Below the pieces are notes generated by a model that saw only the letters and a program-made list of their open reading frames with translations, searched no databases and had not been told where the DNA came from. Below, piece by piece: positions 5,994 to 31,571 of a stretch of 32,000 bases of DNA; positions within the stretch are counted from its first letter, which is position 1; each line of letters opens with the position of its first letter. The position numbers were made by a program, and so were the translations under genes. Source of the stretch: Fibrobacter succinogenes subsp. succinogenes S85 (lineage in GTDB: Bacteria > Fibrobacterota > Fibrobacteria > Fibrobacterales > Fibrobacteraceae); NCBI RefSeq assembly GCF_000146505.1, contig NC_017448.1, positions 570,001 to 602,000 on the forward strand. Direction: 5' to 3'.

Positions 5994-6170
5994 TCTCGCC
6001 TTTAACAGCGCAGAAACCACATACAACATTTCAGCACGTTTGTAAAAAGAGAGTTACACAACAAGAGCTAAAGCGCTGCACAGCAAGCATCGTCTTAATT
6101 GGAGTATCGTAATTTATCTAAATTGCGTTAAAAAGTACTCTTTTAAAAAGCATTTTTGTTTTTTATAAAT

Positions 6171-9100: not shown

Positions 9101-9974
9101 CAAGAGCTACCTCACCGCCATCCACCTCACGGAAGAAGGTTTCTCGCACTTACCGACCATCCAGCAGTTCAACCATATGATCCTCTACATCCCGAAGCAA
9201 GGGAAGATTAGCGAACGCTGGGTCGACGCTACCGACAAAACAGGCAACGATCGCCCGGTACCGCTCGACATGGAAGGCAAGGTCGCTCTCGTGATTGACG
9301 GAGACCAGAGCCATGTGGTGACAACGCCGATTCTTGAAGACAACCAGGAACACCAAATTGCGATTCAGCACGACCTCTTTATCGCCGAAGACGGCAAGTG
9401 CGAATTCCGCGATTCCGTACAGCTCCAGGGCAAGTTCGCTAGCGCCATCCGCAACAAGTTCTTTGGCCGCGATGTCAAGGATCAGGAAAAGCTCTTGGAA
9501 CAGTTCCTCGCCGCAGGCGTGCCGGACGTGAGCATCGGCAACATCCGCATCAAGAACCTAGACCAGTTCAACAAGCCGCTTATCATCGTGAACACGTACG
9601 CCTCAAAGGGTTACTTTGGTCAGGGAGGTTCTGAACTCAAGGGAAGATTCCCGAACGTCTGGGAACGCAGCCTCTTCAAGCTCCCGAAGGTCGCAAAGCG
9701 CCACCACCCTATCCGCATGCCGCACGAGACGCAGTTCAGCTTTAAGCTGAACATCAAGACGGCTAGCGGCCACACGGTAACGCTCACCGAAGCAAAGCCG
9801 CTTAACCGCGCCCCGGATTACGTGAGCTTCGAAAAGCAGCCGAAGTCCAAGACTTCTAGTGGCATCAAGTGGACCACGTTTGCACTCTACGCCGATCCGA
9901 CCGAATACGACAAGATTCGCGAAGAATGGAACTACCTCTTGAGTGAAACGAGCCCGATGATTACAGTGAAATGA
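6171..9974 (+). CDS. Large lipoprotein with TPR repeats and a transglutaminase-like cysteine-protease core (DUF3857/transglutaminase/DUF3858-like architecture)
   Basis: I moved the start to ATG 6171, which gives the signal peptide MNLKTVKISRSSLCASLFGLFFLVSC with lipobox LVSC (the ORF track begins at TTG 6156). A TPR-like segment covers roughly aa 400-650. The transglutaminase core motif is HRGDCKDMALLLKDML. Confidence 0.75.
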   Translation: MNLKTVKISRSSLCASLFGLFFLVSCAGNNTPEVNPSPTPEISESTDAYYDDESSTDYVTEEAPATVATGGTIETSGYTFTAPDNGWTIIGGEDNAPYEFYNPKTGRRAVLVEVMLPEGEPLRLMDRAQIEMQSFESSGKKATLAETYPEEAFGTTGAFFDVAGKRYDTPYEAVGLVIGAGNRIFTLTLAATDTQLPAGTLKQEWKDFYASFKLKEVVQEAVSELSEERIMQYSSADLGYSWSTSDTLWHNWTGVARQNEDPDLVLSNKKEDISLFVYGAIVPSDEVSQQDMFKVLLSRLGLSMNEPSFEVQRVKVGDRYAQEFTLTHVVNKFDFYYTGRFYYDNGRGILIATWTQGINKKKYASVMKNAVNSLKVGAMPKMASDEEARKKQNKFNAAVMSQVGILRLLEDQPFVALSYFERANKMDPEEPLYLINCGFVYQMKELYGPGISYFTSQIDLVRKNGKLLSILGEMYEALFDYGHARECAEAALRYTPNNPEYVINLSDALWGLGQRHQSLIVVQRLYDTQPSSRLGVYLAKTYMGLDQYAEAVDILYAIRGRFGMSKELGETLMDALMFLGRYEEARAISDETLAKAKNDYKVWTMHGKILFYSRNYRDAEKALTKALALKPDNEDAKSFLSATKAYLGKADNRTLQKPITPVEDRTADLKTLLRPQAKQNAIEGDFPAVIHYQKESLKAEKNANWVRSEEMLLEVLDQRGAAIYREFTFDFLPGYDRIFLNALEVYDSNWKLKQKATLNGAYITYATEIGGGNESQTAHFPLSELAPGDFIYMQFSRTNLENKGMIPYTNYESSRDVPVGESVFRIYADTTRFVTEEYGPLEKTAIKGGIEWKIENPVIVRKELYMPVYRDFGAGLMLTGKQEWRDVGDDYQNLISHQFKKAVKVREQAFEVRGNKIGDEAVKAIINFVRQDIRYRDVRFGGHSLIPQTAEVTLKEHRGDCKDMALLLKDMLDAIGVKSYLTAIHLTEEGFSHLPTIQQFNHMILYIPKQGKISERWVDATDKTGNDRPVPLDMEGKVALVIDGDQSHVVTTPILEDNQEHQIAIQHDLFIAEDGKCEFRDSVQLQGKFASAIRNKFFGRDVKDQEKLLEQFLAAGVPDVSIGNIRIKNLDQFNKPLIIVNTYASKGYFGQGGSELKGRFPNVWERSLFKLPKVAKRHHPIRMPHETQFSFKLNIKTASGHTVTLTEAKPLNRAPDYVSFEKQPKSKTSSGIKWTTFALYADPTEYDKIREEWNYLLSETSPMITVK

Positions 9975-10115: not shown

Positions 10116-10775
10116 ATGCGCGCATTAATTCTCTCCGATATTCATGGTTCTGCTTTGGCGGCAAGGCAGGCGCTCACGTTCTTTGAAAAGTTTAACTGCG
10201 ACAAGATATTCTTGCTGGGCGATACGCTCTATCACGGCCCGCGAAACCCGCTCCCGGCAGGACACGGCCCGATGCAAGTCGTCGAAGCGCTTGCGCCGTA
10301 CAAAGACCGCATTGTCGCTGTCCGCGGCAACTGCGATGCCGATGTTGACTTGATGATGCTAGACTTCCCTATCGAAAACGAATACAAAGTCGTCAAAGAT
10401 TGCGGACTTCACTTGTTCATGAGCCATGGACACATCTTTATGCCGGAATGTTTCCCGAGAGATGCGCTAAACGCCATTGAATCTACGGGTGCGGCGCAAT
10501 CCTCAGCGCAGTCCACGCAGCCAGAAGCCGAGGTTCCGCAAAAGCCGCAAATTGACGTGTATCTGTACGGTCACACGCACATCTGGAAGCTCGAAAAGAA
10601 CTTCCGCAATGTGCTTCTCGTGAATCCGGGTTCCACGAGCCTCCCGAAAGGCGGTAACCCGCCGACATTCGGATTCTACGAAAGCACGCCCGCGACAGCA
10701 AACGAACATGCCCATGCCAAATTCAGCATCCACACGCTGGAAGATGGCATGGAAATTGCGGCTGTGAGCATATAG
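10116..10775 (+). CDS. yfcE: YfcE-like metallophosphoesterase (MJ0936 family phosphodiesterase)
   Basis: MRALILSDIHGS...LLGDTLYHGPRNPLPAGHGP...VAVRGNCDADVD...GHTH closely mirrors the E. coli YfcE motif order. A Q/S/A-rich low-complexity insert (AAQSSAQSTQPEAEVPQKPQ) lies before the GHTH motif. Confidence 0.8.
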   Translation: MRALILSDIHGSALAARQALTFFEKFNCDKIFLLGDTLYHGPRNPLPAGHGPMQVVEALAPYKDRIVAVRGNCDADVDLMMLDFPIENEYKVVKDCGLHLFMSHGHIFMPECFPRDALNAIESTGAAQSSAQSTQPEAEVPQKPQIDVYLYGHTHIWKLEKNFRNVLLVNPGSTSLPKGGNPPTFGFYESTPATANEHAHAKFSIHTLEDGMEIAAVSI

Positions 10776-10817
10776 GGAACGACGCACCACCTGCTATTTT
10801 TTTCTTACATTTGAGCC

Positions 10818-12065
10818 ATGGTTTTAAACGTAATCTGGCTCGTGTTTTTCTTCGGTGCATTTATCGCATGCATCGTCCAATGGCTTGCTTTCGGCGATAC
10901 CGGCATTTTTAACAAGGCCATTCTCGGCGCTTTTGACATGTCCAAGACGGCATTCGAAATCGCTCTTGGCCTCACGGGCATTTTGAGCCTGTGGCTCGGC
11001 ATCCTGAAAATCGGCGAAAAAGCGGGCGCAGTCCAGATTTTGGCAAAAATCGTGCAGCCGCTATTCTCGAGACTCTTCCCCGAAATCCCGAAGGGCCACC
11101 CGGTCGTGGGTACCATGCTCATGAACATCAGCGCGAACATGCTCGGGCTCGACAATGCGGCAACGCCGATGGGCCTCAAAGCCATGAAGCAGCTCCAGGA
11201 CTTGAACCCGAACGACGACAAGACCGTCGCAAGCGATTCGCAAATCATGTTCCTCGTCTTGAACGCAAGCGGACTTACGCTAATTCCTGTTAGCATAATG
11301 ACTTACCGCGCACAGCTCGGCGCAGCAAACCCGAGTGACGTGTTCCTCCCGCTCCTCCTCTCGACATTCTTCAGCACTATCGCAGGTATTTTCGCACTCA
11401 GCTTTTTCCAGAAAATCAAGCTCAAGGACCCAGTAACCGTCATGTGGCTCGGCGGCATCAGCGCTTGCGTTATCGCCGTAATGTTCTACTTTAGCCATCT
11501 CACCGCCGAAGCACTCGGCACTACGAGCCTTTTCATTAGCGGTCTTGTGCTGTTTGGAGTCATCGTTGCATTCCTCGGCCTAGCCTGCTACAAGAAAGTC
11601 CAAGCTTATGAAGCATTCGTGGAAGGCGCAAAGGAAGGTTTCAACACCGCCGTCATGATCATCCCGAACCTCGTCGCGATTCTCGTGGGTGTCGCCGTGT
11701 TCCGCGCAAGCGGTGCGATGGACCTCGTGATGAACGGCATCTCTGCTTTGCTCGGCCTTATCGGTGTTGGGAACGACGTTGTCCCAGCGCTCCCCACCGC
11801 CCTTATGAAGCCCCTTAGCGGTAGCGGTGCTCGCGGCATGATGATCGACGCCATGAAGAACCTTGGCCCGGATAGCTTTGCTGGCCGCCTCAGTTGCATG
11901 TTCCAAGGAGCAGCCGACACGACATTCTACATCATCGCCGTGTATTTCGGCTCTGTAGGCGTCAAAAAGACCCGCCACGCCGTCACCTGCGCCCTCATTG
12001 CAGATGCGGTCGGAGTCATTGCAGCCATCGTTATCGCCTACATATTTTTCCCACCGTTCCACTAG
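10818..12065 (+). CDS. Nucleoside-recognition (Gate) domain membrane protein, SpmA/SpmB-like fusion
   Basis: 415 aa and polytopic. It has MLMNISANMLGLDNAATPMGLKAM, typical of Gate domains, and a second Gate-like half near the C-terminus. Confidence 0.65.
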   Translation: MVLNVIWLVFFFGAFIACIVQWLAFGDTGIFNKAILGAFDMSKTAFEIALGLTGILSLWLGILKIGEKAGAVQILAKIVQPLFSRLFPEIPKGHPVVGTMLMNISANMLGLDNAATPMGLKAMKQLQDLNPNDDKTVASDSQIMFLVLNASGLTLIPVSIMTYRAQLGAANPSDVFLPLLLSTFFSTIAGIFALSFFQKIKLKDPVTVMWLGGISACVIAVMFYFSHLTAEALGTTSLFISGLVLFGVIVAFLGLACYKKVQAYEAFVEGAKEGFNTAVMIIPNLVAILVGVAVFRASGAMDLVMNGISALLGLIGVGNDVVPALPTALMKPLSGSGARGMMIDAMKNLGPDSFAGRLSCMFQGAADTTFYIIAVYFGSVGVKKTRHAVTCALIADAVGVIAAIVIAYIFFPPFH

Positions 12066-12205
12066 CTTTTGTAAGCTAAATCACGCGCTCTAAAATGGAC
12101 TAAAAATATTGTGTTATATTAATTTTTTTTTACCCTTTCAAAATTTTTTTATTTACATTTAGAACGCTAATTTGGTGTATAATGTGTGGACTTTAAGGGG
12201 TGAAA

Positions 12206-13900
12206 ATGGACTACGTCATTTTCAGTAGCGTTTATAAAGATTTTAGGGATGCGATTTTAGATAATATTCCTGATATGTCGGCGATGAGCAAACGAATCAG
12301 CGCCGCCATTCCTCCTATATGTAATATTTTAAACATTGGTTTTATCAAGCTCAAACTTATTGCCCCGAGCTCCATTATCGCCAAAGAAGGCTTAAACGAC
12401 GAAAAAATTATTTACGAAGACACGAATGGTTACGAGTCCATGCCACTCATCCAAACTTACCGTACGGGTGAAAACGGCATGGCGACTATTGAGATTAGAG
12501 CCAAGAAAAGTCACAAATTTTCAAACCCAGAACTCCAAGCTGTAAAACTCATCAGTGATGACATGTTCATCATTCTCGGCCGCTCTCGTCTCATGAGCGC
12601 AATCCACTACGCAAGCCAGACAGACACCATGACTGGCGCCCCCAACACAGCAAAGCTCGTACACCACAGCATCGAACTTAAGTCTAAAAACAAGCTCCAT
12701 AATTTTAGCGGTCTATTCCTCAATCTCAAGAACTACAAGTACATCAACCAGTCCAAGTCCCCCGCTATTGGCGACAAGGGTATCGCCCTCTTTACACACA
12801 CCATCATGGCAATGTGCCACGATGACGAAATGATTGCAAGACTCGGTGGCGACAACTTCTTCGTCCTCGTCAAAAAGGAAAACAGAGACCAGTTCGTCAA
12901 GAATTTGAGTTCTATAAAGGTCAACGTCCCTACGCCCCAAGGCCAGGTGATCCCGCTGACCATACAGAGCCGCATTGGCGTTTACGATATCCAGCCGCAA
13001 GACACCATGAACGAAATCATGCACTGCAGCTCTGTTGCCCTGAATGAATCCAGAGTCCATCCGGGTAACGATATCGTTTACTTCACCAGGAAAATGCTCG
13101 AAGACGTTTACCACGAAAAGGAAATTTCTTCGATCTTCCGCGAAGCTCTGCGTCGCAAGGAATTTATCGTCTACTACCAGCCCAAGGTTTCCGTCAAGGA
13201 ACAGAAGCTCTGTGGATGCGAAGCGCTCGTGCGCTGGAACCGCAATGGGCAAGTTATCCCGCCTAGCGAATTTTTGCCGATCCTCGAAAAAGAAGCATCC
13301 ATTTGCCTTCTTGACTTTTACGTTTTCCGCAAAGTCTGCGAAGACATCCGTAATTGGCTGGACACGGGTATTGAACCGGTCCGCGTGTCTTCAAACTTTT
13401 CAAGACACCATCTTAGCAATCCGCACTTGACTGAAGATATCCTTGACATCATGAAGGAATTCAATATCGACAGCAAGTTCATTGAAATTGAGCTCACGGA
13501 ATCCTCCAATTTTGAAGATAAAATTGCGATGCAGAAGTTCGTGAACGGACTTCGCCAGCATGGCATTTCAGTCTCTATCGACGACTTTGGTACAGGCTAC
13601 TCCACATTTGCCGCCATCAAGGATTTGAACGTCAACGTCATCAAATTGGACAAGTCGCTCCTCGACCACATCGGCGACGAAAAGTACCATGATGAAGTTG
13701 TCATCAAGAACATGGTGAACATGATCAACGAACTCAATCTTGAAGTCGTTGCAGAAGGTGTCGAAAACTCGAAGCAGCTTGACTTCTTGCAGAACGCCAA
13801 GTGCTCAATTATTCAGGGATTCCTTTTTGACAAGCCGCTGACCAAGGAAGAATTTGAAAAGAGACTTTCAAAAGAAGTCACTTACACAAACATTTCCTAA
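12206..13900 (+). CDS. GGDEF (degenerate, GGDNF) - EAL domain c-di-GMP phosphodiesterase with an uncharacterised N-terminal domain
   Basis: I prefer ATG 12206, which lies 6 nt after AAGGGG (the ORF track starts at GTG 12200). GGDEF-fold markers are DTMTGAPN and RLGGDNFFV. EAL markers are EALVRW, EIELTES, DDFGTGYS, KLDKS, EGVE and QGFLF. Confidence 0.85.
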   Translation: MDYVIFSSVYKDFRDAILDNIPDMSAMSKRISAAIPPICNILNIGFIKLKLIAPSSIIAKEGLNDEKIIYEDTNGYESMPLIQTYRTGENGMATIEIRAKKSHKFSNPELQAVKLISDDMFIILGRSRLMSAIHYASQTDTMTGAPNTAKLVHHSIELKSKNKLHNFSGLFLNLKNYKYINQSKSPAIGDKGIALFTHTIMAMCHDDEMIARLGGDNFFVLVKKENRDQFVKNLSSIKVNVPTPQGQVIPLTIQSRIGVYDIQPQDTMNEIMHCSSVALNESRVHPGNDIVYFTRKMLEDVYHEKEISSIFREALRRKEFIVYYQPKVSVKEQKLCGCEALVRWNRNGQVIPPSEFLPILEKEASICLLDFYVFRKVCEDIRNWLDTGIEPVRVSSNFSRHHLSNPHLTEDILDIMKEFNIDSKFIEIELTESSNFEDKIAMQKFVNGLRQHGISVSIDDFGTGYSTFAAIKDLNVNVIKLDKSLLDHIGDEKYHDEVVIKNMVNMINELNLEVVAEGVENSKQLDFLQNAKCSIIQGFLFDKPLTKEEFEKRLSKEVTYTNIS

Positions 13901-22121: not shown

Positions 22122-23441
22122 ATGAAATCAGTACCTATAACGCTCCTGACCGGTTACCTGGGAGCCGGCAAAACAACTCTCCTCAACTACGTTCTCAACA
22201 ATCAGCAGGGCTACCACGTCGCCGTCATCGTAAATGACATTGGCGAAGTGAACATCGACCAGACTTTAATTGAAAAGGGCGGAAACATCACGAAGGAAGA
22301 TTCGGGCAAGGTTGTCCCGCTTTCGAATGGTTGTATCTGCTGTTCGCTCAAGACCGACTTGATCGAACAAATCGCCGAACTTTTGGAAATGGGCAAGTTC
22401 GACTACATTCTCATCGAAGCTAGCGGCATCTGCGAGCCGATTCCTATAGCCCAGACCATTAGCTTTGCAGGTAGCCAGCTCCGCAGCAAAGACGGCAGAC
22501 CTCTCCCCTGCCATTTGGACAACATCGTGGCAGTCGTTGACGTGCTCCGCCTCGCAGACGAATTTGCCGGTGGCGAAAAGCTCCTCGAAGAAGACCTCGA
22601 AGAAGAAGATATCGCAAACTTGCTCATCCAGCAGATTGAATTCTGCAACACGATTATCATGAACAAGGTCGACGCTCTCAGCAAGCACGACTTGGAACAC
22701 GTGAAGGCAGTCGTGAAGGCTTTGCAGCCGACAGCCAAGATGATCGAGACGAACTACGGCAAGGTCGACATGAAGGACATTCTCGACACGAAGCAGTTCG
22801 ACTTCAACAAAGTTGCCGAATCGAGCACTTGGGCAATCAAGCTCAACGAAGAAGGTCACGACAACGATGACGATGATGATGACGATCATGACGAACATGA
22901 ACATCACCACCACGACCATGACGATGACCACGATGAGCATGAGCACCATCATCACGACCATGATGAACACGAACATCACCATGACCACGACGATGAAGAC
23001 CACAGCCATTGCGACCATGAACATGGTGTTTGCCACTGCGGCCACCACCACGACAAGGACCATCCGCATGGTGACGAATACGGCATCAGCACGTTCGTGT
23101 TCGAAGACCACCGTCCGCTGAACCGCGAAAAGTTCGAAGCATTCCTCGATGACTATCCAACGAGCATCATCCGCACGAAGGGTCTCCTCTGGTTCAGCGA
23201 CGAACGCAGTGAAAGCTACTTGTTCGAACAGGCAGGCAAGCAGGCCTCCGCCCAGAATTTTGGACGTTGGTTCGCCGCCGAAAGCAAGGCCGAACAACAG
23301 CGCATTCTCGAAGAAAATCCGCAGCTCCAGAAAATTTGGGACGAAAAGTACGGCGACCGCATCATCCGCCTGGTATTCATTGGCCAGCACATGGACAAGA
23401 AAAAGATTATCCAGGTGATGAAGGACTGCTTGGACGACTAA
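22122..23441 (+). CDS. COG0523-family (CobW/ZigA/YeiR-like) metallochaperone GTPase with a long His/Asp-rich insert
   Basis: It has P-loop GYLGAGKTTLLN, the metal-binding motif GCICCS, NKVD, and a CobW C-terminal-like region. Confidence 0.85.
   Translation: MKSVPITLLTGYLGAGKTTLLNYVLNNQQGYHVAVIVNDIGEVNIDQTLIEKGGNITKEDSGKVVPLSNGCICCSLKTDLIEQIAELLEMGKFDYILIEASGICEPIPIAQTISFAGSQLRSKDGRPLPCHLDNIVAVVDVLRLADEFAGGEKLLEEDLEEEDIANLLIQQIEFCNTIIMNKVDALSKHDLEHVKAVVKALQPTAKMIETNYGKVDMKDILDTKQFDFNKVAESSTWAIKLNEEGHDNDDDDDDDHDEHEHHHHDHDDDHDEHEHHHHDHDEHEHHHDHDDEDHSHCDHEHGVCHCGHHHDKDHPHGDEYGISTFVFEDHRPLNREKFEAFLDDYPTSIIRTKGLLWFSDERSESYLFEQAGKQASAQNFGRWFAAESKAEQQRILEENPQLQKIWDEKYGDRIIRLVFIGQHMDKKKIIQVMKDCLDD
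22857..23075 (+). repeat. Low-complexity His/Asp/Glu-coding tract with internal near-repeats (HDEHEHHHHDHD three times)
   Basis: About aa 246-318 of the GTPase read HDNDDDDDDDHDEHEHHHHDHDDDHDEHEHHHHDHDEHEHHHDHDDEDHSHCDHEHGVCHCGHHHDKDHPHGD. Confidence 0.9.
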
Positions 23442-23540: not shown

Positions 23541-24989
23541 TTACATTTCTTCGATTTCTTGCATTTCAATAGCATCAACGTCTGGCGGGAGCGGATTTTT
23601 GGAGTCTTGTTTTGCACCAAGACGTTCCAGCTTGCGGCAGGACTGTACAATGCTTTGGCCCTTATCGTCAAGTTTTGCCATTCCCTTATTGTAGGCCTCC
23701 TGAGCCTTACCGAGAGCGGCACCGATTTCATCCATGTTTTTTACGAAAATGCCCACGCGCTTGAGCACTTCGTTCGCAAGTTCAAAGACCTTTTGCTGGT
23801 TTTGAGCCTGTTGCACTTGGCGCCAGGTCATTTTCACCATACGAAGCATCGCGTAAAGGGATTGTTCATCGGCGATGTAGACATTTTTTTCAAAAGCATC
23901 ACGCCATAACGCATGATCTTCGGCAAGAGCTGTCCAAAGGGCTGCCGCTCGCGGCACAAACATCACGACAAAGTCCATTGTCTTCTTGGGAGCCTTGACA
24001 TAGCTCGAATAATCCTTTACCGAGAGTTCATTTACGTGTTTGCGGAGGCTTTCGATATGCTTTTTCAAGAGAACTTTGCGCTCGTCAGGATTTTCTGCCT
24101 GCATATAGTCCATAAATGCAGCCATAGAAACTTTCGAATCAACGACAACTTCTTTGTACGGGTCCAAATGCACAATCACATCCGGGCGCAACATTGCATT
24201 ATTCCCTTCAGCACGCACAACGTTACCGTTGGCATCACGGAGTGTTGCCTGCACATCAAAATGTTTCCCTTCCTCAAGACCAAGTGATTCCAGGACTTCT
24301 TCAAGAACGCGTTCTCCCCAATCGCCCTGAATTTTGCTATCGTGCTTAAACGCACGCACAAGTTCATTAGCAGCATTCTTGGTTTTGTCATTGGCATCAA
24401 TGGACTGTTTCAAGACTTCCTTGAGTGAAGAATTCGCTTCGGTCTGTGCGCGGGTCGTGTCGTTCATGGTCTTTTCCATCTTGGCGATGGTTTCCTTGAG
24501 CGGGCTTACAAGCTGTTCCATGGTCGCATGACCGGATTCCGAGATCTGCTTTTCGCGCTGTTTAAGCATTTCTTCAGTAGAGTTCTTTGCTTGGGCATAT
24601 AAGCGCTGCGACATTTCCGTAAAACGAGCATTTTGCTCATTTAGCGAAGATTGATGCACTCGTTCCATATCCAGCTTCATACTTTCTAGGCGCTTGGCAC
24701 TCGCCTCTTTTTCATCGGCTAGAGACTTGGCAGCGGCGGCGCGCTCGTCAGCAATCCGCTTTTCAGCATCGGCTTTTACCATTTCAAGCTGTTTTTCGGT
24801 ATTTTCTTTAAGTTCTGCGTTTTTAACAGTTTCTGTCGCGAGCTGGCTACGCAGCACAGCGACTTCCTTTTCCATTTCAACATTCGCCTGACGCGCAGCG
24901 GCTTCGCGCTGCGAGTTTCCATTACGGGCAAACAAGACGCCGATTACAATTCCGAGGACAGCGCAAATAATGGCTACGGCTATGGTCAT
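23541..24989 (-). CDS. rmuC: DNA recombination protein RmuC
   Basis: 482 aa. It has an N-terminal TM anchor (MTIAVAIICAVLGIVIGVLF), a long coiled-coil, then an RmuC-type C-terminal region (GDWGERVLEEVLE...RPDVIVHLP-like...VDSKVSM...FVVMFVP). Confidence 0.85.
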   Translation of the reverse strand: MTIAVAIICAVLGIVIGVLFARNGNSQREAAARQANVEMEKEVAVLRSQLATETVKNAELKENTEKQLEMVKADAEKRIADERAAAAKSLADEKEASAKRLESMKLDMERVHQSSLNEQNARFTEMSQRLYAQAKNSTEEMLKQREKQISESGHATMEQLVSPLKETIAKMEKTMNDTTRAQTEANSSLKEVLKQSIDANDKTKNAANELVRAFKHDSKIQGDWGERVLEEVLESLGLEEGKHFDVQATLRDANGNVVRAEGNNAMLRPDVIVHLDPYKEVVVDSKVSMAAFMDYMQAENPDERKVLLKKHIESLRKHVNELSVKDYSSYVKAPKKTMDFVVMFVPRAAALWTALAEDHALWRDAFEKNVYIADEQSLYAMLRMVKMTWRQVQQAQNQQKVFELANEVLKRVGIFVKNMDEIGAALGKAQEAYNKGMAKLDDKGQSIVQSCRKLERLGAKQDSKNPLPPDVDAIEMQEIEEM

Positions 24990-25037: not shown

Positions 25038-25080
25038 AAATGTCAAGTGTTTTTCAAGAAATAATGGATCCTACGCTCAA
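25038..25080 (-). promoter_or_regulatory. Repeat copy A / rmuC promoter module (minus strand: ..TCCATTATTTCTTGAAA..TTGACATTT)
   Basis: It shares the blocks AAATGTCAA, TTTCAAGAAATAATGGA, CC and TACGCT with 30504-30552. The minus-strand TTGACA (reverse complement of 25041-25046) lies exactly 51 nt before the rmuC ATG, and CGATA follows at spacer positions 17-21. Confidence 0.55.
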
Positions 25081-27389
25081 CTGGCGAGATCCTTGACCTT
25101 GTCCCAGAGCTTGGCGCCAGCATTTTTCACAGACTTGAGACTTTTGCGAGCCTTTCCAAAAAAACTGTAATTATCAAGTTCGTCTTGCGCGGATTCATTG
25201 CCGACGTTTTCAGCGACATTCACAGGCTTGTCGCCTTCATTGTTTTCGACAGACGGATCAGCGCCGGCATCAACAAGCATTTTGACGATACGACCATTCG
25301 CATAACGCGCTGCAATATGGAGCGGACGGTTCCCATAAGCATCAACTCGGTTGACATTCGCATTTTTCTTGATCAAGAAAGCCACCAAATCCGTTCTGTT
25401 CCGCTGGATGGCGTAAGCAAGCGGCGTTTCGCCCGCATTGTCCATCGCATCCACTTTCGCGCCCTGCGAAAGGAGAACGTTCATCCACATCGCCCCATTC
25501 TGCATGCTCAAGGCGCGATGCATCAGCGTTTTTCCATTTGCAAAGACTCGATTCGCCGAGCCCACATCGTTTGCAAGCAAGAACTGCAACGATTCCTTTT
25601 TCTGGCCCATAAGAGCCTTTTCAACAGGCGCCATGCTTTTATATGGGAGCATCATATTGGCGCCCTTTGACTTCAGGAATTTCAGGGAGGACACGTCATT
25701 ATTTTCTACAGCATAATGAATCGCTGCACAACCAGTGTATTTCGACACATAATTGATATTCGCGCCCAACTGCAAATAGGACTTTGCCAGGTCCAAATTA
25801 CGATGTTTTACAGCAGCCACAAAAAGGCTATCTCTATAGGTATAGTCAAACAGGTATTTCGAGGTTTTGTTGTGGACAAAGGTCATGGGAGTCTGCGCAG
25901 AAGAGTTCTTATCATACACGGAAAGCCCAAACGACATCAGCTTTTGAGCGATCGCAAGATCGTTCTTCTTGACAGCCACGAAAAGTGCTGTTTCGCCCAA
26001 ACGGTTCCTGGCGTGAATATCCGCACCCAATTTCTGCAATTCCGTAAACATCGTAAGATTGCGTGCAACCGCATAATGAATAAGCGGGACGCCATTTTCG
26101 TCCTTATCATTGACGCTTGCGCCATACCCAACAACTTCTTTCAGCAAATCAATATTACCCTTCTTGACAGCATCGAAAATCAACTGATTTTTGAGCCTGT
26201 AATGGTTCAAGAACTTTTTGTTCACCGCATTCTTCGTCAATTTTTCAGCAAGCACACCTGCATTATCCGGAGTATTCACGTCAAGACCAAGCGCAATGAG
26301 GTGTTTGAGCACAGGCACATTTCCGTTCACAGCTGCATAATGGAGCAAAGTATTGCCTTTTTCATCCGTGTAATGCAAGTCTGCGCCATTTCTATACGCA
26401 AGCTTTGCATCAAGCGCAGCAATATTCCCCGCCTTGATGGCGTTCTGGATTTGCTCCACCTTGGTATACGCATCCTGAAGCACAAGCAAACTCTGCTGCG
26501 TCTTGGCATAATTCTTCAAATGCTCATAGTTTTCCTGAATCCATTCATGCGGACGCGCCTGGACAAAAGGTTTCGCATAATAAGAGCATCCCGATTCAAG
26601 CGCAAGCTCCAACGGGGTACGCCCCATATTATCGGTCAACCGCTCATCAGCGCCATGATGCAACAACGTATCAATCAGCTCCGCAGAGCCAATCCTTACT
26701 GCATAATGCAAAGGCGCATCACCAACTGAGTCCTTGCTATTGACAAAGACTCCGTTATTCAACAAATCCGCAACGTACTTGGCGTCGCCCACGGCACAAG
26801 CGGAGAATAGCTTTTCCATTTTACGCTTAGGGTCTTTCGGAATGTAGCCGTTATCGTACAAGACAAAATAAGCCACAGAAATCAAAAGCGCAGCACCAAT
26901 CAACGTAAAAAGCAAGCCCCAAAGTCTTACTCGACGGGCTTTTACCAAAGCAACCTGCGAATACATCGCTGTTTCACGCGCTCTCTGTTGCGTTGAATCG
27001 CGCTCACGCTGCAGAGTTGTAATCTGCTGAGTCAACCCGACAAGAGTCCCCTCCAAAGTCGGCACAACAACATTCTTGACAAGCCCCAATGCATACGCAT
27101 ACGAGTCAATCACATAATCGCTCATCACGCGATCAAGCCTGGAATTTTCGGCAAAAAACTGTTTCTGCTTGCGAATACAGAGGTTCAGGTCACTGCGATT
27201 GCTTGCAAAACCGAGCATAGAACTCCCCACGCCCAGCTGCTCCGCAAGCACTATTGACGAACGGTATTCATAAAACGACTCGCCAAGTTCATCAGCAAGC
27301 AACCCCCGCAATCTATGATCGCAGACAATGTCGTTACCATAAGTATTGACAAGCTGACGCATGATAATATGTAAGGGGCGCTTATTCAT
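25077..27389 (-). CDS. Membrane-anchored ankyrin-repeat protein (N-terminal ~110-aa unknown domain, coiled-coil, one TM, then at least 12 ANK repeats)
   Basis: The TM helix is LWGLLFTLIGAALLISVAYFVLY. There are many ANK consensus units (GDAPLHYAVRIGSAELIDTLLHHGAD, GNTLLHYAAVNGNVPVLKHLIALGLDVN, GETPLAYAIQRNRTDLVAFLIKKNANVN, GNRPLHIAARYANGRIVKMLVDAGADP). The ATG directly abuts the upstream TAA (TAAATG). Confidence 0.85.
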   Translation of the reverse strand: MNKRPLHIIMRQLVNTYGNDIVCDHRLRGLLADELGESFYEYRSSIVLAEQLGVGSSMLGFASNRSDLNLCIRKQKQFFAENSRLDRVMSDYVIDSYAYALGLVKNVVVPTLEGTLVGLTQQITTLQRERDSTQQRARETAMYSQVALVKARRVRLWGLLFTLIGAALLISVAYFVLYDNGYIPKDPKRKMEKLFSACAVGDAKYVADLLNNGVFVNSKDSVGDAPLHYAVRIGSAELIDTLLHHGADERLTDNMGRTPLELALESGCSYYAKPFVQARPHEWIQENYEHLKNYAKTQQSLLVLQDAYTKVEQIQNAIKAGNIAALDAKLAYRNGADLHYTDEKGNTLLHYAAVNGNVPVLKHLIALGLDVNTPDNAGVLAEKLTKNAVNKKFLNHYRLKNQLIFDAVKKGNIDLLKEVVGYGASVNDKDENGVPLIHYAVARNLTMFTELQKLGADIHARNRLGETALFVAVKKNDLAIAQKLMSFGLSVYDKNSSAQTPMTFVHNKTSKYLFDYTYRDSLFVAAVKHRNLDLAKSYLQLGANINYVSKYTGCAAIHYAVENNDVSSLKFLKSKGANMMLPYKSMAPVEKALMGQKKESLQFLLANDVGSANRVFANGKTLMHRALSMQNGAMWMNVLLSQGAKVDAMDNAGETPLAYAIQRNRTDLVAFLIKKNANVNRVDAYGNRPLHIAARYANGRIVKMLVDAGADPSVENNEGDKPVNVAENVGNESAQDELDNYSFFGKARKSLKSVKNAGAKLWDKVKDLAS

Positions 27390-28367
27390 TTACTGTTCGT
27401 TTCCTTTTTTGTTGATGATCCCGGCAAGGCTCATGTCGTCCTTGCTGCCGTGCAAGCTCATATCGCTGAAGCCTTCGTCCATACGGGCGACCGCCTGCTC
27501 TTTACCAATATCTAAATACATTTGCAAAAGCCGCATATAGAACCGGTTCAGACATTCAGGAGCTACATCGTAATCGCCTACAGAATCCTCGATTCCATCG
27601 CTACACGCAAATACCGCAAACGGGAAATGCCCTGTACCGTCAAATGCGTAGCGGAACGAGTCCGCGGGATTCTTATCGCAAAGCGATGTCGTGTAGTTCA
27701 AGAAACACGTTGAATCCCACGGCACTGGCGGAGTCCAGTTTTCATAAGGCTCGGCGCTATCGTTCAGGCAAAGCAGTCTGCCATCGCCCACGTGAATCGC
27801 AAGCCAGCCCCACCGCGTCTGCACATAAGCCATCAGCGTTGAGCCATAAGCCTTCACCAAGTCGTTTTTGCCCAAGAGTTCCTTCTCAGCATCGGTCAGC
27901 GGGTTTTCTTGGGCGTCCTGCTGGATGGCGGCAACCCACTTTTCGCAAATTCGACGGCACACATCGCGGATTAGCTTTTCTTGCGGCTGGATATTCCCAA
28001 TCTGTTGCTGATACAGCATTGCTTGCTCTTCGCGAAGCTTCGCTGTTTCGGATTTTTCCTCCGATTTTTCAGTCCAACAGGAATCCCCCACATCCGTGCG
28101 GGCTGTCACCGCCCCCGTCCGATTTCCAAGGAACTTGCGAGCATCTTCGGATTGCATGAACTGCATCAGTTCATCCTTTGCAATCCCAGCCGCAAGCCTT
28201 GCCCCAACATCACTCCGGACGTAAGACGGTGAACCATGCCCATCGCATACCACGATCAACTGGATTTCGCCATCATTATATTCTAGCGAAAAGTCCTGGC
28301 ACGGGATATTTGCAGGCAAATGCTTCGCCCCGACTTTGCTCACCGCAAACGTTTCAGCATTTTGCAT
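27390..28367 (-). CDS. PP2C-family Ser/Thr phosphatase (TerY-triad type)
   Basis: I trimmed the start to ATG 28367, with GGAG upstream and 16 nt after the vWA stop (the ORF track starts at 28496, overlapping the vWA gene). Motifs are SKVGAKHLPANIPCQDF, VVCDGHGS and ACSDGIED. Confidence 0.8.
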   Translation of the reverse strand: MQNAETFAVSKVGAKHLPANIPCQDFSLEYNDGEIQLIVVCDGHGSPSYVRSDVGARLAAGIAKDELMQFMQSEDARKFLGNRTGAVTARTDVGDSCWTEKSEEKSETAKLREEQAMLYQQQIGNIQPQEKLIRDVCRRICEKWVAAIQQDAQENPLTDAEKELLGKNDLVKAYGSTLMAYVQTRWGWLAIHVGDGRLLCLNDSAEPYENWTPPVPWDSTCFLNYTTSLCDKNPADSFRYAFDGTGHFPFAVFACSDGIEDSVGDYDVAPECLNRFYMRLLQMYLDIGKEQAVARMDEGFSDMSLHGSKDDMSLAGIINKKGNEQ

Positions 28368-28383
28368 ACACACCTCAGACTCC

Positions 28384-29154
28384 CTAGTTCCAGCCGGACC
28401 AGTCATTGGAACCGGAATTGGCCGTACTTGAACCCACATCGACTCCTGAAAGCGATGCATCGTTTGCAACCGTATTCGAAATTGACTGTGCGACAAGCTG
28501 GTTCTGCGTTACCATTGCAGCGCCGACAGATGCACTTTGGCTTGCCACCGTTGTCGCAGACACGCTGACCGTATGAATCATCTTCTTGAGCTGATCCACA
28601 TTGTGAACCGTGATGACCGATTCCGAACTGCCCGTAAATTCCCGGAGCACGTCATTATTGGCATCGTCACCGATGGCGATAGCCACCTTCACACCAGCCT
28701 TGAACCAGCGATTCCCCTTGAGCTTTTCCAGCTTACGGACATAGCCATCCGTCGGAGCGCCGTCCGAAAGGAGGACAATGGCAGGTGCGCGGCACCCCGT
28801 CTTTTCGCCCATAAAACCATTAGACCTGGAAAGTTTAGCGTCCAATTCTGCACAGGCGCTACCAAACGATGTCGTACCACTTGCGCTCAAATCCTGCCAC
28901 TGGAACTTTTCGGCTTCAAGCGGCTGTTCGTACATCCAATTGACAGCGCTACTGAACTCAAGCACGGCAATCTTGATTTGCGAATCGCCGCAATTCTTGG
29001 AGATGTCGCCCACATCGTCAAGAGCGTCACGAACCGCCGTATTGAGCGATGCAATCTTTGAACCGGACATACTGCCCGACGTATCCACCATAAAAATCAG
29101 ATGCGTGACACGACGCGGGATCGGTTCCAACGCAAACGGGTCTTTTGTAGCCAT
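28384..29154 (-). CDS. von Willebrand factor A (vWA) domain protein, TerY-like
   Basis: It has the MIDAS motif MVDTSGSMSG, then SGTTSFGSA and LLSDGAPTD. The C-terminal tail is S/N/T/V-rich and ends in NDWSGWN. The RBS AAGGAG lies 8 nt upstream of the ATG. Confidence 0.8.
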   Translation of the reverse strand: MATKDPFALEPIPRRVTHLIFMVDTSGSMSGSKIASLNTAVRDALDDVGDISKNCGDSQIKIAVLEFSSAVNWMYEQPLEAEKFQWQDLSASGTTSFGSACAELDAKLSRSNGFMGEKTGCRAPAIVLLSDGAPTDGYVRKLEKLKGNRWFKAGVKVAIAIGDDANNDVLREFTGSSESVITVHNVDQLKKMIHTVSVSATTVASQSASVGAAMVTQNQLVAQSISNTVANDASLSGVDVGSSTANSGSNDWSGWN

Positions 29155-29168
29155 ATTCTATTCTCCTT

Positions 29169-30455
29169 TTATTCAATAACGGCAGTTTCGCCTTGATTTC
29201 CAAACTTGATCTTGTAACCTTTGCGGGCAGGCATGCCCTGACCATCCGCAACGACTCGCTGAGTGCCGTCCAAACACGTCACCGTCCAGGATTCGCCAGA
29301 ATTATTGCAAAGCCCCACCTCATTGTTCTTGACGACGGTTCTGCCAACGACCTTGTCGTAATCGGTTGAGCAGTGGACTAGACATTCATGGAGCTTCTGC
29401 TCCATCATCAGCGGAATTTTAAACTTACCTACGCGCAACATTCTATAATCTCCAAATGACTTATCGCAGTAAGCACACTTTTTGTCAACACTATCCGGGT
29501 CCGCAAATGAAAATTTTCCGCATTTCGGGCATTTGACAAAATCCGCACGCACCTGCAGCAAAATATCGCGCCATTCCTTATCCTTCACGCGGAGGTCTCC
29601 GTTTTGCAGAGCCTCCTTACTGAACGTCTTGCAGAATGCATCGCGCAATACCTTCGGATAGATATCCCAACGGCGCATCACATTCTTATGCAGGCTCGGA
29701 TCCGGCGCATTGCTCTTGTCGTTTGGATCCATAATAAATACGGCGTTATACCCCAAAAGTTGCCTTGCCATTTCCGGGTCGTTATCACACGGGCAAGAGA
29801 GATAACGTCTGCCTTCAAACGGACGGTTCATATAAATCAAGATGAACAGACAAACCGCAAGCGAATGGTAATCCGTCACTTTGCGCGGCCTAGACTTTCC
29901 TTCGACAATTTCGGGTGCCATATACCCCGCCTTGCCAAGAATGCCAAGGTCGTCGGTACCATCGGGAGCCACGTTATCGTTATCGCAAATCAGCACGTCA
30001 CCCGTTTTAGGGTTAATAAAGAAGTTGCCATCGTTCATATCCTGGTAGCTATAACCGTCGCGATGCAGGTCCAAAAACGATTTCACAAGTTGCATACAGG
30101 CGTTCAGCTGGGCATTCACATCGGCAAAACGGGCAGTCACCAAGATGAACTTGCTCATGTCCACATAGCCTGCGGGGCGGATTTTCATCAAATAGCCAAA
30201 TCCACCATTGGGGTCTTCGGCAACAGCCATCGGCCAAATAAAATGTTCGTTCGGCGTCTGGCGATTCGCATTGCGCTTCAGATTTTCACGGAAACGCTCA
30301 CTCACCTTTTGCGTGTACCATTTTAACGCATACTCACTACCATTATAATTGACAGCGTAAACGATTCCCTGACCGCCACGACCCAATTCACGGACAACTT
30401 GACAAGTGTCACCGCCAGCGAGCGCGACCACATCCCCTTTTTTCAATTCGGACAT
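29169..30455 (-). CDS. Atypical Hanks-like protein kinase with a CxxC..CxxC zinc ribbon and a beta-rich C-terminal domain
   Basis: I trimmed the start to ATG 30455, 5 nt after GGGAGG (the ORF track starts at 30512). It has G-loop LGRGGQGIVY, a lysine in YALKWY, catalytic loop LHRDGYSYQDMNDGN (Asp and Asn retained; HRD becomes YQD), ICDND in place of DFG, GYMAPE, and CPKC...CAYC. Confidence 0.75.
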   Translation of the reverse strand: MSELKKGDVVALAGGDTCQVVRELGRGGQGIVYAVNYNGSEYALKWYTQKVSERFRENLKRNANRQTPNEHFIWPMAVAEDPNGGFGYLMKIRPAGYVDMSKFILVTARFADVNAQLNACMQLVKSFLDLHRDGYSYQDMNDGNFFINPKTGDVLICDNDNVAPDGTDDLGILGKAGYMAPEIVEGKSRPRKVTDYHSLAVCLFILIYMNRPFEGRRYLSCPCDNDPEMARQLLGYNAVFIMDPNDKSNAPDPSLHKNVMRRWDIYPKVLRDAFCKTFSKEALQNGDLRVKDKEWRDILLQVRADFVKCPKCGKFSFADPDSVDKKCAYCDKSFGDYRMLRVGKFKIPLMMEQKLHECLVHCSTDYDKVVGRTVVKNNEVGLCNNSGESWTVTCLDGTQRVVADGQGMPARKGYKIKFGNQGETAVIE

Positions 30456-30503
30456 AAAGCCTCCCAAAAATTTTTTCTTCATACTTATCGACTTGAGGGG
30501 GCT

Positions 30504-30552
30504 AAATGTCAAATTAATTTCAAGAAATAATGGAACCCGTCGCTACGCTTCA
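30504..30552 (-). promoter_or_regulatory. Repeat copy B / promoter module of the kinase operon
   Basis: It has the same blocks as 25038-25080, with a 6-nt insertion. The minus-strand TTGACA (reverse complement of 30507-30512) lies exactly 51 nt before the kinase ATG at 30455, and CGATA again sits at spacer positions 17-21. Confidence 0.55.
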
Positions 30553-30574
30553 GGATGACAAGCGTCAGGATGAC
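30550..30574. repeat. Two 10-bp direct repeats TCAGGATGAC (30550-30559 and 30565-30574)
   Basis: Read directly from the sequence. They lie in the divergent kinase/sigma intergenic region, immediately distal to repeat copy B. Confidence 0.7.
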
Positions 30575-30631
30575 GAGCAATGACATTATAATAGGGGGTT
30601 CTGAAAAAAAATTTTCGGCAGGACCTCCGAA

Positions 30632-30646
30632 TGTCATTATATGACA
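30632..30646. promoter_or_regulatory. Inverted repeat TGTCAT-TAT-ATGACA (candidate operator) upstream of the sigma-factor gene
   Basis: It has perfect 6-bp arms and lies about 58 nt upstream of ATG 30704. Related ATGACATTATAAT at 30580-30592 contains a perfect TATAAT (30587-30592). Confidence 0.4.
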
Positions 30647-30703
30647 GTGCAAAAAATTATTTTTGGGAACGCTTTCAAGTTCACCTCATCCAAGGAGTCG
30701 CCC

Positions 30704-31444
30704 ATGATGAACACCCACACCACCGCAAACGAAGTCATGAACCTCATTGACCTCGCCCAGCACACCAAAAATGGCAAGGAAGGTTCCGATGCCATCAACA
30801 AACTGTGGGACATCTTCGGCGACAAGGTCACCGGAATCACCATCAAGAAATCTTTTTCGCACGATTCCGACCATAGCATGCACGGCATGTCGGTCTACGA
30901 ACGCCGTAACCAGCTCCAGGAACAGGCGTTTGACACATTCCGCAACGCCGTCTTGACATACGATGCCAGCACGAACGTGCCATTCATGGCTTACGTTTCG
31001 AAGAAAATCAACTGGCAGCAGCTTGACTTCAAGCGCAAGAACGCAAAGCACACCCATAACGAAAAAGCCACCGACTTTTCCATCGAAGGCGGCTCTTCCA
31101 TCTCAATGGACGATCCAAAAAACGCAGAAATGCTGGAAACCATGAACCACATTGACTTGGAATCACCCATGGCAGGCCGTTTTGTCGAGGATTTTGAAAA
31201 GCAGTCATACCTCGATGACATGGTCCACGTTCTCTTCGGCAAGCTCCAGAACGAAAAGAAGCTTCTTGAATTCGCCACCACATACTATGAAGTATGCCAG
31301 GAAGAAGACAAGGACACCGATGCCGAAGTCGCCAAAAGGATGGGCTGCACCCGCTCTTACGCAAGCCAGCTCCACAAAAAGCTCATCGCATTCTTGAGCA
31401 ACACCGATTTCGCCGACGACTGCCGCATGGCTCTTGCCGCATAA
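30704..31444 (+). CDS. ECF-like sigma-70 family RNA polymerase sigma factor (orphan, no adjacent anti-sigma)
   Basis: I trimmed the start to ATG 30704, 6 nt after AAGGAG. Region-2-like PFMAYVSKKINWQQLDFKRKN resembles the FxxWLxxIxxNxxxDxxRK pattern. Region-4 HTH-like sequence is EVAKRMGCTRSYASQLHKKLIAFL. A long acidic linker joins them. Confidence 0.6.
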   Translation: MMNTHTTANEVMNLIDLAQHTKNGKEGSDAINKLWDIFGDKVTGITIKKSFSHDSDHSMHGMSVYERRNQLQEQAFDTFRNAVLTYDASTNVPFMAYVSKKINWQQLDFKRKNAKHTHNEKATDFSIEGGSSISMDDPKNAEMLETMNHIDLESPMAGRFVEDFEKQSYLDDMVHVLFGKLQNEKKLLEFATTYYEVCQEEDKDTDAEVAKRMGCTRSYASQLHKKLIAFLSNTDFADDCRMALAA

Positions 31445-31498: not shown

Positions 31499-31542
31499 AG
31501 AGTAGGTTTATAGGATTTTTCATTTTTTTTTAGAACTCCCCC

Positions 31543-31571
31543 TTGCCATGTGCAATTTTGATTGATATTTT
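31543..31571 (+). promoter_or_regulatory. Sigma70-like promoter TTGCCA-17 nt-TATTTT for the trp leader
   Basis: The -35 is at 31543-31548 and the -10 at 31566-71. The predicted start site falls at or near the leader ATG (31578), which would explain the missing SD. Confidence 0.35.

Follow-up and report, generated by a model that had tools for sequence, protein, structure and literature searches.

A TerY-P-type kinase, vWA and PP2C triad and its candidate adaptor protein in Fibrobacter succinogenes S85

Genes of the locus and identity of the triad

This work concerns a putative signalling operon in a 32,000-nt stretch of the Fibrobacter succinogenes subsp. succinogenes S85 chromosome (contig NC_017448.1, positions 570,001 to 602,000), referred to below as the window. 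Four minus-strand open reading frames (ORFs) spanning positions 25077–30512 encode, in the direction of transcription, a Ser/Thr protein kinase, a TerY-like vWA protein, a PP2C-type phosphatase and an ankyrin-repeat protein (ANK), and a sigma-70-like ORF diverges from them (Table 1). The ANK, PP2C, vWA, kinase and sigma-like proteins match the NCBI entries Fisuc_0132 to Fisuc_0136 (ACX73746–ACX73750) exactly; gene coordinates use the likely true starts. A preliminary description of this DNA had reported four minus-strand genes packed with almost no spacing. The ORFs were confirmed where it had placed them, with lengths equal to those of the NCBI proteins, and its account of all three junctions agreed with our re-reading. 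After the kinase TAA come AAGGAG and then the vWA ATG; 16 nt containing GGAG lie between the vWA TAG and the PP2C ATG; and the PP2C/ANK junction reads TAAATG. Spacing at these junctions is 0–16 nt. The surroundings are ordinary chromosome (LigA, a CobW-type GTPase, RmuC and a GGDEF-EAL protein) with no obvious island, and a scan of the window for promoters and terminators gave a signal not above shuffled expectation. A mobile defence island was also considered as the setting of the window, and the gene content gave it no support.

Table 1. Features of the S85 locus. Coordinates are positions in the window; gene ends include the stop codon where marked.
Feature	Coordinates	Strand	Evidence
Ser/Thr protein kinase, Fisuc_0135, 428 aa	29169–30455 (incl. 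stop)	-	Pfam Pkinase 4e-11; exact NCBI match
Kinase zinc ribbon, C309-P-x-C312...C327-x-x-C330	29466–29531	-	Four Cys invariant in two alignments
Kinase C-terminal FHA-like beta-sandwich, aa ~338–427	29175–29444	-	AlphaFold2 (AF2) model, per-residue confidence (pLDDT) 94.7, predicted template-modelling score 0.86
TerY-like vWA protein, Fisuc_0134, 256 aa, IMG name YegL	28384–29154 (incl. stop)	-	Pfam VWA 8e-9
vWA metal-ion-dependent adhesion site (MIDAS), DTSGS, aa D24–S28	29071–29085	-	Homolog comparison
vWA low-complexity tail ending in acidic-Trp motif ...SNDWSGWN	28387–28542	-	Homolog comparison
PP2C-type phosphatase, Fisuc_0133, 325 aa	27390–28367 (incl. stop)	-	Pfam PP2C_2 5.5e-25
Protein with N-domain, long helix, transmembrane segment and ankyrin repeats, Fisuc_0132, 770 aa	25077–27389 (incl. 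stop)	-	TAAATG junction with PP2C
Triad-associated N-terminal domain (candidate adaptor), aa ~9–101	27087–27365	-	Iterated profile, alignments, AF2
Long helix, aa 112–179: coiled-coil-like stalk and transmembrane segment (aa 159–177, nt 26859–26915)	26859–27056	-	AF2, hydropathy
Ankyrin-repeat solenoid, aa ~191–745	25155–26819	-	Pfam Ank_2/Ank_4/Ank
RmuC-family gene, directly downstream of ANK, own promoter-like element	23541–24989	-	Pfam RmuC 3e-83
Divergent sigma-70-like ORF, Fisuc_0136, 246 aa	30704–31444 (alternative start 30641)	+	Sub-threshold sigma matches
Repeat copy upstream of kinase, with TTGACA, ends 49 nt before ATG	30504–30537	-	Repeat comparison
Repeat copy upstream of rmuC, with TTGACA, ends 49 nt before ATG	25038–25071	-	Repeat comparison

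Pfam matches bear out the kinase, vWA and PP2C assignments of the preliminary description, and no transmembrane segment was predicted in any of the three proteins. The GxGxxG loop, ALK lysine, D-x4-N and APE motifs of the kinase are invariant among 18 homologs, and the enzyme, which carries a zinc ribbon and an FHA-like domain, is active-looking in sequence. The ribbon has a weak Pfam Zn_ribbon_3 match and was modelled with pLDDT >89; its CPxC...CxxC pattern agrees with the TerY-P kinase as described in PMC11090510. The C-terminus of the kinase is predicted to adopt an FHA-like fold: in a Foldseek comparison against the PDB, the top 50 matches were all FHA domains, with probability ~1 and template-modelling scores up to 0.66. 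The same module is also fused to a CAP-domain protein at another locus (L085; locus labels are explained below). In the vWA protein, the MIDAS motif DxSxS is present in 79/79 homologs, and a Trp lies among the last five residues in 70 of the 79, typically in the form ...DDW(D/G). This acidic-Trp tail looks like a short docking motif and may serve as one. The DGHG motif of PP2C is kept in 75 of 76 homologs.

According to PMC11090510 and PMC4978471, a TerY-P triad consists of a TerY-like vWA protein, a PP2C phosphatase and a Ser/Thr kinase with a C-terminal zinc ribbon; a metal-sensing phosphorylation switch has been hypothesised for it (Anantharaman et al. 2012, as cited in PMC11090510). In the window, the trio lies in one operon, the kinase has the C-terminal zinc ribbon and the vWA MIDAS is intact. 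Homologous loci were collected with a pattern scan for this type of kinase, one genome per species, which gave at least 588 loci. The best 80 of these formed the detailed sample, in which ORFs were called and then searched with the window proteins. Labels such as L003, L054 and L081 denote individual genomic loci compared with the S85 window. The 80 sampled loci come mainly from gut and rumen metagenome-assembled genomes (MAGs) and represent Bacteroidales, Lachnospiraceae and other Clostridia, Treponema and other Spirochaetes, Synergistaceae, Riflebacteria and others; full-length relatives of the kinase number in the thousands in a homology search.

The order kinase, vWA, PP2C is kept in about 78 of the 80 loci. 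A TerD gene (Pfam TerD 4e-73) lies directly 5′ of the kinase in Clostridia, and a gene for a stand-alone TerY-C metal-binding protein of ~120 aa (E ~1e-10) occupies this position in Bacteroidales and Spirochaetes. Since TerD or TerY-C adjoin the kinase upstream in other phyla, the kinase family is tied to the Ter system. No ter gene (TerD, TerY-C) was found among the window ORFs searched against Pfam. Judged by these features, the Fibrobacter trio is a genuine TerY-P triad, and the identity proposed in the preliminary description is upheld. The same three proteins form the triad defined by Anantharaman, Iyer and Aravind (2012, Mol Biosyst 8:3142; via PMC11090510 and PMC4978471). The homologous loci studied here also show physical linkage to TerD and TerY-C genes, and some relatives share the FtsK-like ATPase and helicase links reported there. 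The S85 locus differs in two respects: its window is without ter genes, and its operon has a fourth gene, marked by a domain absent from Pfam, NCBIfam and PADLOC.

The N-terminal domain of the fourth protein and its linkage to the triad

The fourth protein begins with an all-helical domain of ~95 aa (hereafter the N-domain), in which D33 is invariant and Gly18 near-invariant in alignments of 37 and 69 sequences. The AF2 model is a compact bundle of ~7 helices with pLDDT ~90. The preliminary description had called this domain unique; it belongs instead to a large family. A profile seeded with ANK aa 1–110 was iterated until it converged on the sampled loci. When 1.84 billion cluster representatives (clusters at 50% identity) were scanned exhaustively for the domain with HMMER, 2,881 proteins matched at E ≤ 1e-3 and 809 of them at E ≤ 1e-10, and the domain is almost always N-terminal in these proteins. 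Against a profile made from other loci, the window ANK protein scored E 1.5e-14. The family is visible only by the exhaustive scan: a word-index homology search with ANK aa 1–195 gave no relatives, and the profile form of the search gave only 15 short proteins.

No match to the N-domain was found in Pfam, NCBIfam, PADLOC, PDB sequences or BFVD, nor among PDB structures, where the best E-value was 0.79. Its absence from Pfam, a database that includes TerY_C, is an indirect hint that the domain may not yet have been formally described. Some 2,900 clusters, defined at 50% identity, would then constitute an uncatalogued family to be named and modelled.

In the sampled loci, the gene 3′ of PP2C is nearly always co-directional and closely spaced, and often overlaps the PP2C stop. 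Its length is very variable, and many of the proteins encoded there start with a related motif. The N-domain profile identified 64 ORFs in 52 of the 80 triad loci, all 64 on the triad strand; 34 lie immediately 3′ of PP2C, and the others are either one to two genes beyond that position or just 5′ of the kinase. A fourth gene of this kind is no peculiarity of this strain, since the triad has a co-directional N-domain gene in these 52 loci. Among the 28 loci lacking a match, 11 have <1.4 kb beyond the triad, so the frequency in well-covered loci is about three quarters or more. In a reciprocal lookup, starting from N-domain proteins found independently of the triad, four loci were triad-linked (L089, L090, L092 and L098), one was an orphan with no triad within 7 kb (L096), one was ambiguous (L097) and one was too short for judgement (L091). 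At L090, the fragment upstream of the N-domain gene is the C-terminus of a PP2C, and L098 shows the order of five N-domain genes, TerY-C and kinase. The linkage of N-domain and triad is therefore strong, as these counts indicate, and not absolute.

Several of these loci have further content of their own. Tandem arrays of N-domain paralogs lie beside the triad at L092 (4900–15100, ~9 paralogs) and L098 (1780–7340, five paralogs); in many members the N-domain is accompanied by double zinc ribbons (DZR), and the array has a TerY-C gene within it or behind it. A large co-directional operon at L085/L086 (4800–17000) encodes a vWA-kinase fusion (738 aa), a second complete triad and extra vWA genes, together with an Hsp70, an N-domain protein with MORN repeats and a CAP-domain protein that ends in the FHA-like module of the kinase. 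At L087/L088, a tyrosine-integrase gene and a divergent Xre-type helix-turn-helix (HTH) regulator flank the triad and N-domain operon upstream of the kinase, which suggests that some versions of the triad reside on mobile elements.

The part of the protein behind the N-domain is highly variable. According to Pfam searches of 59 N-domain proteins, the fusion partners include BspA-LRR, WG beta-repeats, FGE-sulfatase, ankyrin, MORN, Sel1 and TPR, and also SF1/SF2 helicases with DUF4011, FtsK and PIN. Given this variability, ankyrin is, by sequence comparison, one interchangeable C-terminal module among many, and the conserved link to the triad is the N-domain. Independent associations of ankyrin repeats with the triad are seen in Fibrobacter, in Synergistaceae (L054) and in Riflebacteria, the last being a PP2C-ANK fusion (L071). 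Three gene orders were seen within the Fibrobacter lineage: kinase-vWA-PP2C-ANK-RmuC in S85 and L082, RmuC-ANK-kinase-vWA-PP2C in L003 and the P0080 contig, and ANK-FtsK-like-kinase-vWA-PP2C-Hsp70 in L081. The ANK gene adjoins the triad or sits one gene off in all three. The FtsK/SpoIIIE-type ATPase of L081 (5482–7716), encoded between ANK and kinase, has a C-terminus similar to the kinase N-lobe (aa 1–203, E 8e-21) and may be a pseudokinase fusion.

Because gene order and partner domain recur across phyla, the adjacency of ANK and triad is not due to chance. Ankyrin-repeat genes are common, and ankyrin occurs in 5 of the 59 scanned N-domain proteins and in a minority of triad loci, so an unrelated neighbour might have been supposed. 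That explanation is effectively refuted by the TAAATG junction with PP2C, by the presence in ANK of the N-domain as the hallmark of triad-linked genes, by the strand agreement of 64/64 N-domain ORFs, and by the retention of ANK with the triad through rearrangements together with the PP2C-ANK fusion in L071. The ankyrin gene, proposed earlier as a genuine partner of the triad, proved in this neighbourhood comparison to be linked to it through the N-domain.

The coiled-coil and transmembrane segment attributed earlier to the ankyrin protein were recovered as a coiled-coil-like stalk and a single predicted transmembrane segment, with a hydropathy peak of 2.53, inside the AF2-predicted long helix. 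Behind it, Ank_2, Ank_4, Ank, Ank_5 and Ank_3 match far above their cut-offs over aa ~191–745, with Pfam Ank down to 3e-54. Other N-domain proteins likewise have a transmembrane segment between adaptor and variable part, and soluble forms also occur: a helicase protein in L053 and a 341-aa N-domain and ankyrin protein without a transmembrane segment in L054. As no triad protein has a transmembrane segment, the N-domain is presumably cytoplasmic. In 13 single-pass members of the family, the N-side of the segment carries more Lys/Arg than the other side in 9, fewer in 1 and equal numbers in 3; the ratio in the L003 ortholog of ANK is 5:3. This positive-inside bias, together with the TM-less (transmembrane-free) triad, indicates that the ankyrin solenoid is probably periplasmic.

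Proposed coupling mechanism and related systems

We propose, with a probability of about 0.6, that the locus encodes a four-component TerY-P triad in which a conserved N-terminal adaptor connects variable modules with a phosphorylation switch in the cytosol. Three soluble cytoplasmic proteins, the kinase, the vWA protein and PP2C, would make up the switch. The fourth protein would be tied to it through the ~95-residue N-terminal adaptor, not through the ankyrin repeats, and the adaptor would be the part by which the variable protein docks to the triad. A good candidate ligand to complete the vWA MIDAS site is the invariant Asp33. The kinase/PP2C pair would set a phosphorylation state that the FHA-like domain would read. 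Signalling might run in either direction: the variable module, with or without bound ligand, would have its state coupled to the switch, or the switch would control the module. Asp33 versus the vWA MIDAS, the acidic-Trp tail of the vWA protein and the FHA-like reader of the kinase offer concrete handles on this scheme.

Several observations weigh against the proposed scheme. The Pfam FHA model gave no match to the kinase C-terminus at E ≤ 10, and the invariant residues of the module (G381, N384, S386 and W390) include no Arg or His; for both reasons, phosphothreonine binding by the FHA-like fold is only putative. Neither Ser nor Thr is invariant in the N-domain alignments, so the domain is not an obvious phospho-acceptor. 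An N-domain gene was not detected in at least 17 well-covered triad loci, some of which carry Hsp70 or other genes instead, and the N-domain ORF of L096 has no triad within 7 kb. The window ANK protein itself shows a Lys/Arg tie of 4:4 across the transmembrane segment, which leaves its own topology ambiguous. As to novelty, the literature searched does not mention the N-domain; its scope excludes the 2012 triad paper, where the domain could have been noticed earlier.

The parallels of the proposed adaptor coupling with other systems are partial. The mycobacterial PknB-PstP-FhaA/GarA proteins are an example of a bacterial signalling module built from Ser/Thr kinase, PP2C and FHA components. The S85 locus resembles it in combining a Hanks-type kinase, a PP2C phosphatase and an FHA-fold reader. 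It differs in that the FHA-like fold belongs to the soluble kinase itself, following its zinc ribbon, and is without an evident canonical Arg/Ser/His signature, in that the vWA protein is an obligate partner, and in that sensor-like modules are supplied in trans on the N-domain proteins. Effector-associated domains, in which a constant adaptor is fused to variable modules of conflict systems, were reportedly described by Kaur, Burroughs, Iyer and Aravind in 2020. The likeness lies in a small, constant, helical N-terminal domain, variable C-terminal repeats or enzymes, an operon with a conserved core and, in some loci, tandem paralogs. Unlike those adaptors, the N-domain serves a core that is a kinase/phosphatase/vWA switch and not an NTPase, and its fold has no detected relative. 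As the N-domain is absent from the core proteins, any interaction would be heterotypic.

The trio in Escherichia coli, cited earlier as the same as that of S85, compares less closely. At the domain level, the identity stands: the products of yegL-pphC-(yegJ)-yegI, with yegD (Rajagopalan and Dworkin, preprints 10.1101/819920 and 10.1101/303594), are homologous to the S85 proteins with E 3e-10 to 7e-7. It does not extend to gene order, which is vWA-PP2C-...-kinase in E. coli, unlike kinase-vWA-PP2C in S85, or to kinase architecture, YegI being a 648-aa two-pass membrane protein with another C-terminus than the S85 kinase. A profile search found no N-domain protein at the yeg locus; yegJ, considered as a counterpart of the N-domain, gave no profile match. 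An Hsp70-family gene, yegD, adjoins the E. coli trio, and an Hsp70-family neighbour is likewise present in L006, L009, L081 and L085. By this comparison, the E. coli locus is a distant cousin only.

Two other accounts of the N-domain proteins have to be considered. They could be outputs of the switch (its clients or substrates) and not its sensors, with the triad responding to an intracellular cue, for instance stress of the metal or tellurite type, and acting through the adaptor on envelope or surface proteins and DNA-processing enzymes. This would suit the TerD and metal-binding TerY-C proteins encoded beside the triad in other phyla, the MIDAS site intact in all homologs and the metal-sensing switch hypothesised in 2012 (Anantharaman et al., via PMC11090510). 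It would also suit the effector-looking enzymes (helicase, PIN, FtsK) of some N-domain proteins and the surface-protein domains of gut anaerobes (BspA-LRR, FGE-sulfatase) borne by many. The window, however, has neither a TerD nor a TerY-C gene, the N-domain lacks a conserved phospho-acceptor residue, and repeat solenoids such as ANK, LRR and TPR serve more typically in recognising ligands or proteins than as effectors. We hold this account to be possible, though on balance doubtful.

The second account is a system of anti-phage defence or biological conflict, with the N-domain proteins as diversifying invader sensors and effectors and the triad as the trigger. Such a role could go together with the adaptor mechanism. 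Gao et al. (2020, Science; cited through PMC7699616 and PMC11090510) reported protection against T7-like phages by TerY-P-like modules. As far as those sources describe it, that TerY-P defence system has the same kinase, PP2C and vWA proteins in a stand-alone cassette, and its kinase is fused to an OB fold (PMC11090510), whereas the S85 kinase has a zinc ribbon and an FHA-like fold. Hypervariable C-terminal modules, arrays of tandem paralogs and helicase, PIN or FtsK partners are traits of conflict systems, and an integrase and an Xre-type regulator adjoin the triad in L087/L088. In PADLOC 2.0.0, which may be without TerY-P models, only generic kinase models responded to the kinase, with weak matches to those of PD-T4-6 and mad6, and the vWA protein, PP2C and the N-domain had no match even at E ≤ 10. 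The context in the window is housekeeping (LigA, CobW, RmuC), free of mobile-element genes, and the locus occupies the same place in several Fibrobacter lineages. A defence role thus seems to us unlikely for this locus, while keeping some plausibility.

A broader reading suggests itself, which we offer tentatively and rate slightly below either of these accounts. In gut and rumen anaerobes, TerY-P triads may act as hubs for an unrecognised family of trans-acting receptors or adaptors that share one small docking domain of novel fold. Through that domain, a soluble, eukaryote-like kinase/phosphatase/vWA switch would acquire a repertoire of sensors that diversifies and is in some cases expanded in tandem, with ankyrin, LRR, TPR and lectin-like modules in the periplasm and helicases and nucleases in the cytoplasm. 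Receptor-associated kinases, or innate-immune pattern-recognition arrays, would then have a counterpart in bacteria, and the missing input/output layer would be supplied for the long-enigmatic TerY-P system, a triad known by comparative genomics since 2012, with a related form tied to phage defence in 2020. Candidate partner proteins in the family number in the thousands, and their variable modules give hints of what is recognised by the system.

Sigma-like gene, repeats and neighbouring genes

The divergent ORF had been described as an ECF-like (extracytoplasmic function) sigma factor. It has no Pfam match at E ≤ 0.01, with Sigma70_r4 weakly matched at E 0.034. NCBIfam SigE gave 5.5e-6 (26 bits against a cut-off of 339) and sigma70-ECF (TIGR02937) 1.9e-3 (17.9 bits against a cut-off of 42.9), and a profile of six homologs matched SigF, SigI6 and WhiG in the PDB at E 0.04–0.1. 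Because the aligned segments are sigma regions 2 and 4.2, the label “sigma-like” is reasonable; the ECF assignment was not borne out, all matches lying below the curated cut-offs. Homologs were found only at loci of the Fibrobacter lineage (L003, L081 with two copies, L082, L083, L093 and L094) and at none of the other 79 loci, and a scan with the single protein gave only two close relatives. As its homologs are confined to this lineage, the gene falls outside the conserved system. A lineage-specific link to the triad is possible, since the gene stays nearby through the Fibrobacter rearrangements, at 3–6 kb from the kinase in L003 and L081. Apart from this homolog, the L003 locus, from a Fibrobacter MAG, has a 246-aa protein with a C-terminal HTH encoded directly after PP2C (10270–11010, plus strand). 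It is 21% identical to the window ORF and represents a second sigma-like gene there.

Regulation of sigma factors by PP2C phosphatases and kinases is established, for example in the SpoIIE and RsbU systems. By analogy, the Fibrobacter triad and ANK might control transcription through the sigma-like protein, as a partner-switching or anti-sigma module. The region-2-like and region-4-like matches to SigE, SigF, SigI and WhiG would agree with this, as would the presence of homologs close to the triad at all Fibrobacter-lineage loci seen, in three arrangements, and of the distant second gene directly after PP2C in L003. Yet every sigma match is under its curated cut-off, the 79 non-Fibrobacter loci hold no homolog, and the gene lies kilobases from the kinase in L003 and L081. 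A partner of the anti-sigma, STAS or RsbW-like kind is absent, and conservation within one genus may be inherited synteny. Transcriptional control of this kind is the least likely of the regulatory roles considered here. An association of ankyrin repeats with a sigma-70-type protein, in a setting where stress or defence is a candidate role, is shared with MzaA of the MZA anti-phage system (NCBIfam NF041931), which has ankyrin and sigma-70 parts in one protein. In the window, the two functions would be on separate, divergently transcribed genes; the match to MzaA covers the ankyrin repeats only, at 109 bits against a cut-off of 800, and the window protein is not a member.

The preliminary description had also pointed to flanking direct repeats. 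They are real (34 nt, 29/34 identical, with an exact 16-mer shared), but they are not part of the system: they lie in promoter regions and are unconserved in the close relative L082. TTGACA with a downstream CGATAWA forms a promoter-like consensus before many genes in related Fibrobacter loci, and the extra identity of the repeats is absent from L082 despite the same gene order. Cassette boundaries or recombination sites were considered and rejected, given the promoter position at 49 nt from the starts, the common consensus and the absence from L082. The repeats are best read as promoter regions that were duplicated in the S85 lineage alone. Their duplication possibly stems from the rearrangement that separates the gene orders of S85 and L003. 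Besides these, a 30-nt inverted repeat (30583–30612 and 31522–31551, 77% complementary) with a T-run and AGAAC(C/T)CCCC brackets the sigma-like gene, each arm sitting just upstream of promoter-like sequence.

The RmuC gene neighbours the ANK gene in Fibrobacter only, in the gene orders of both S85/L082 and L003/P0080. Its product matches the PADLOC model RTasRmuC (DRT-associated RmuC) at 6e-68; this match and the adjacency to ANK may reflect ordinary RmuC homology and synteny.

Elsewhere in the window, a 1,272-aa TPR-rich protein (6156–9974, plus strand) and a GGDEF-EAL protein (12200–13900, plus strand) are encoded, with no sign of a link to the triad. The segment 18382–21773 (minus strand) has a GC-content of ~0.40 against ~0.50 elsewhere and encodes a Fib_succ_major-domain protein; its two large ORFs (398 and 422 aa) gave no Pfam match. 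Two genes from the triad, a CobW/COG0523-type GTPase (22122–23441, plus strand) carries a long His/Asp-rich insertion (HHHHDHDDDHDEHEHHHH...); insertions of this type in such GTPases are typical of zinc metallochaperones. Finally, two overlapping genes at 1953–5518 (plus strand) form a second Ser/Thr signalling pair. The first encodes a 687-aa FHA-domain ABC transporter (FHA, ABC_tran and ABC2_membrane) and overlaps the start of the second, which encodes a 501-aa Hanks-type kinase with a C-terminal F5/8-type-C-like (NADase_transloc) domain.

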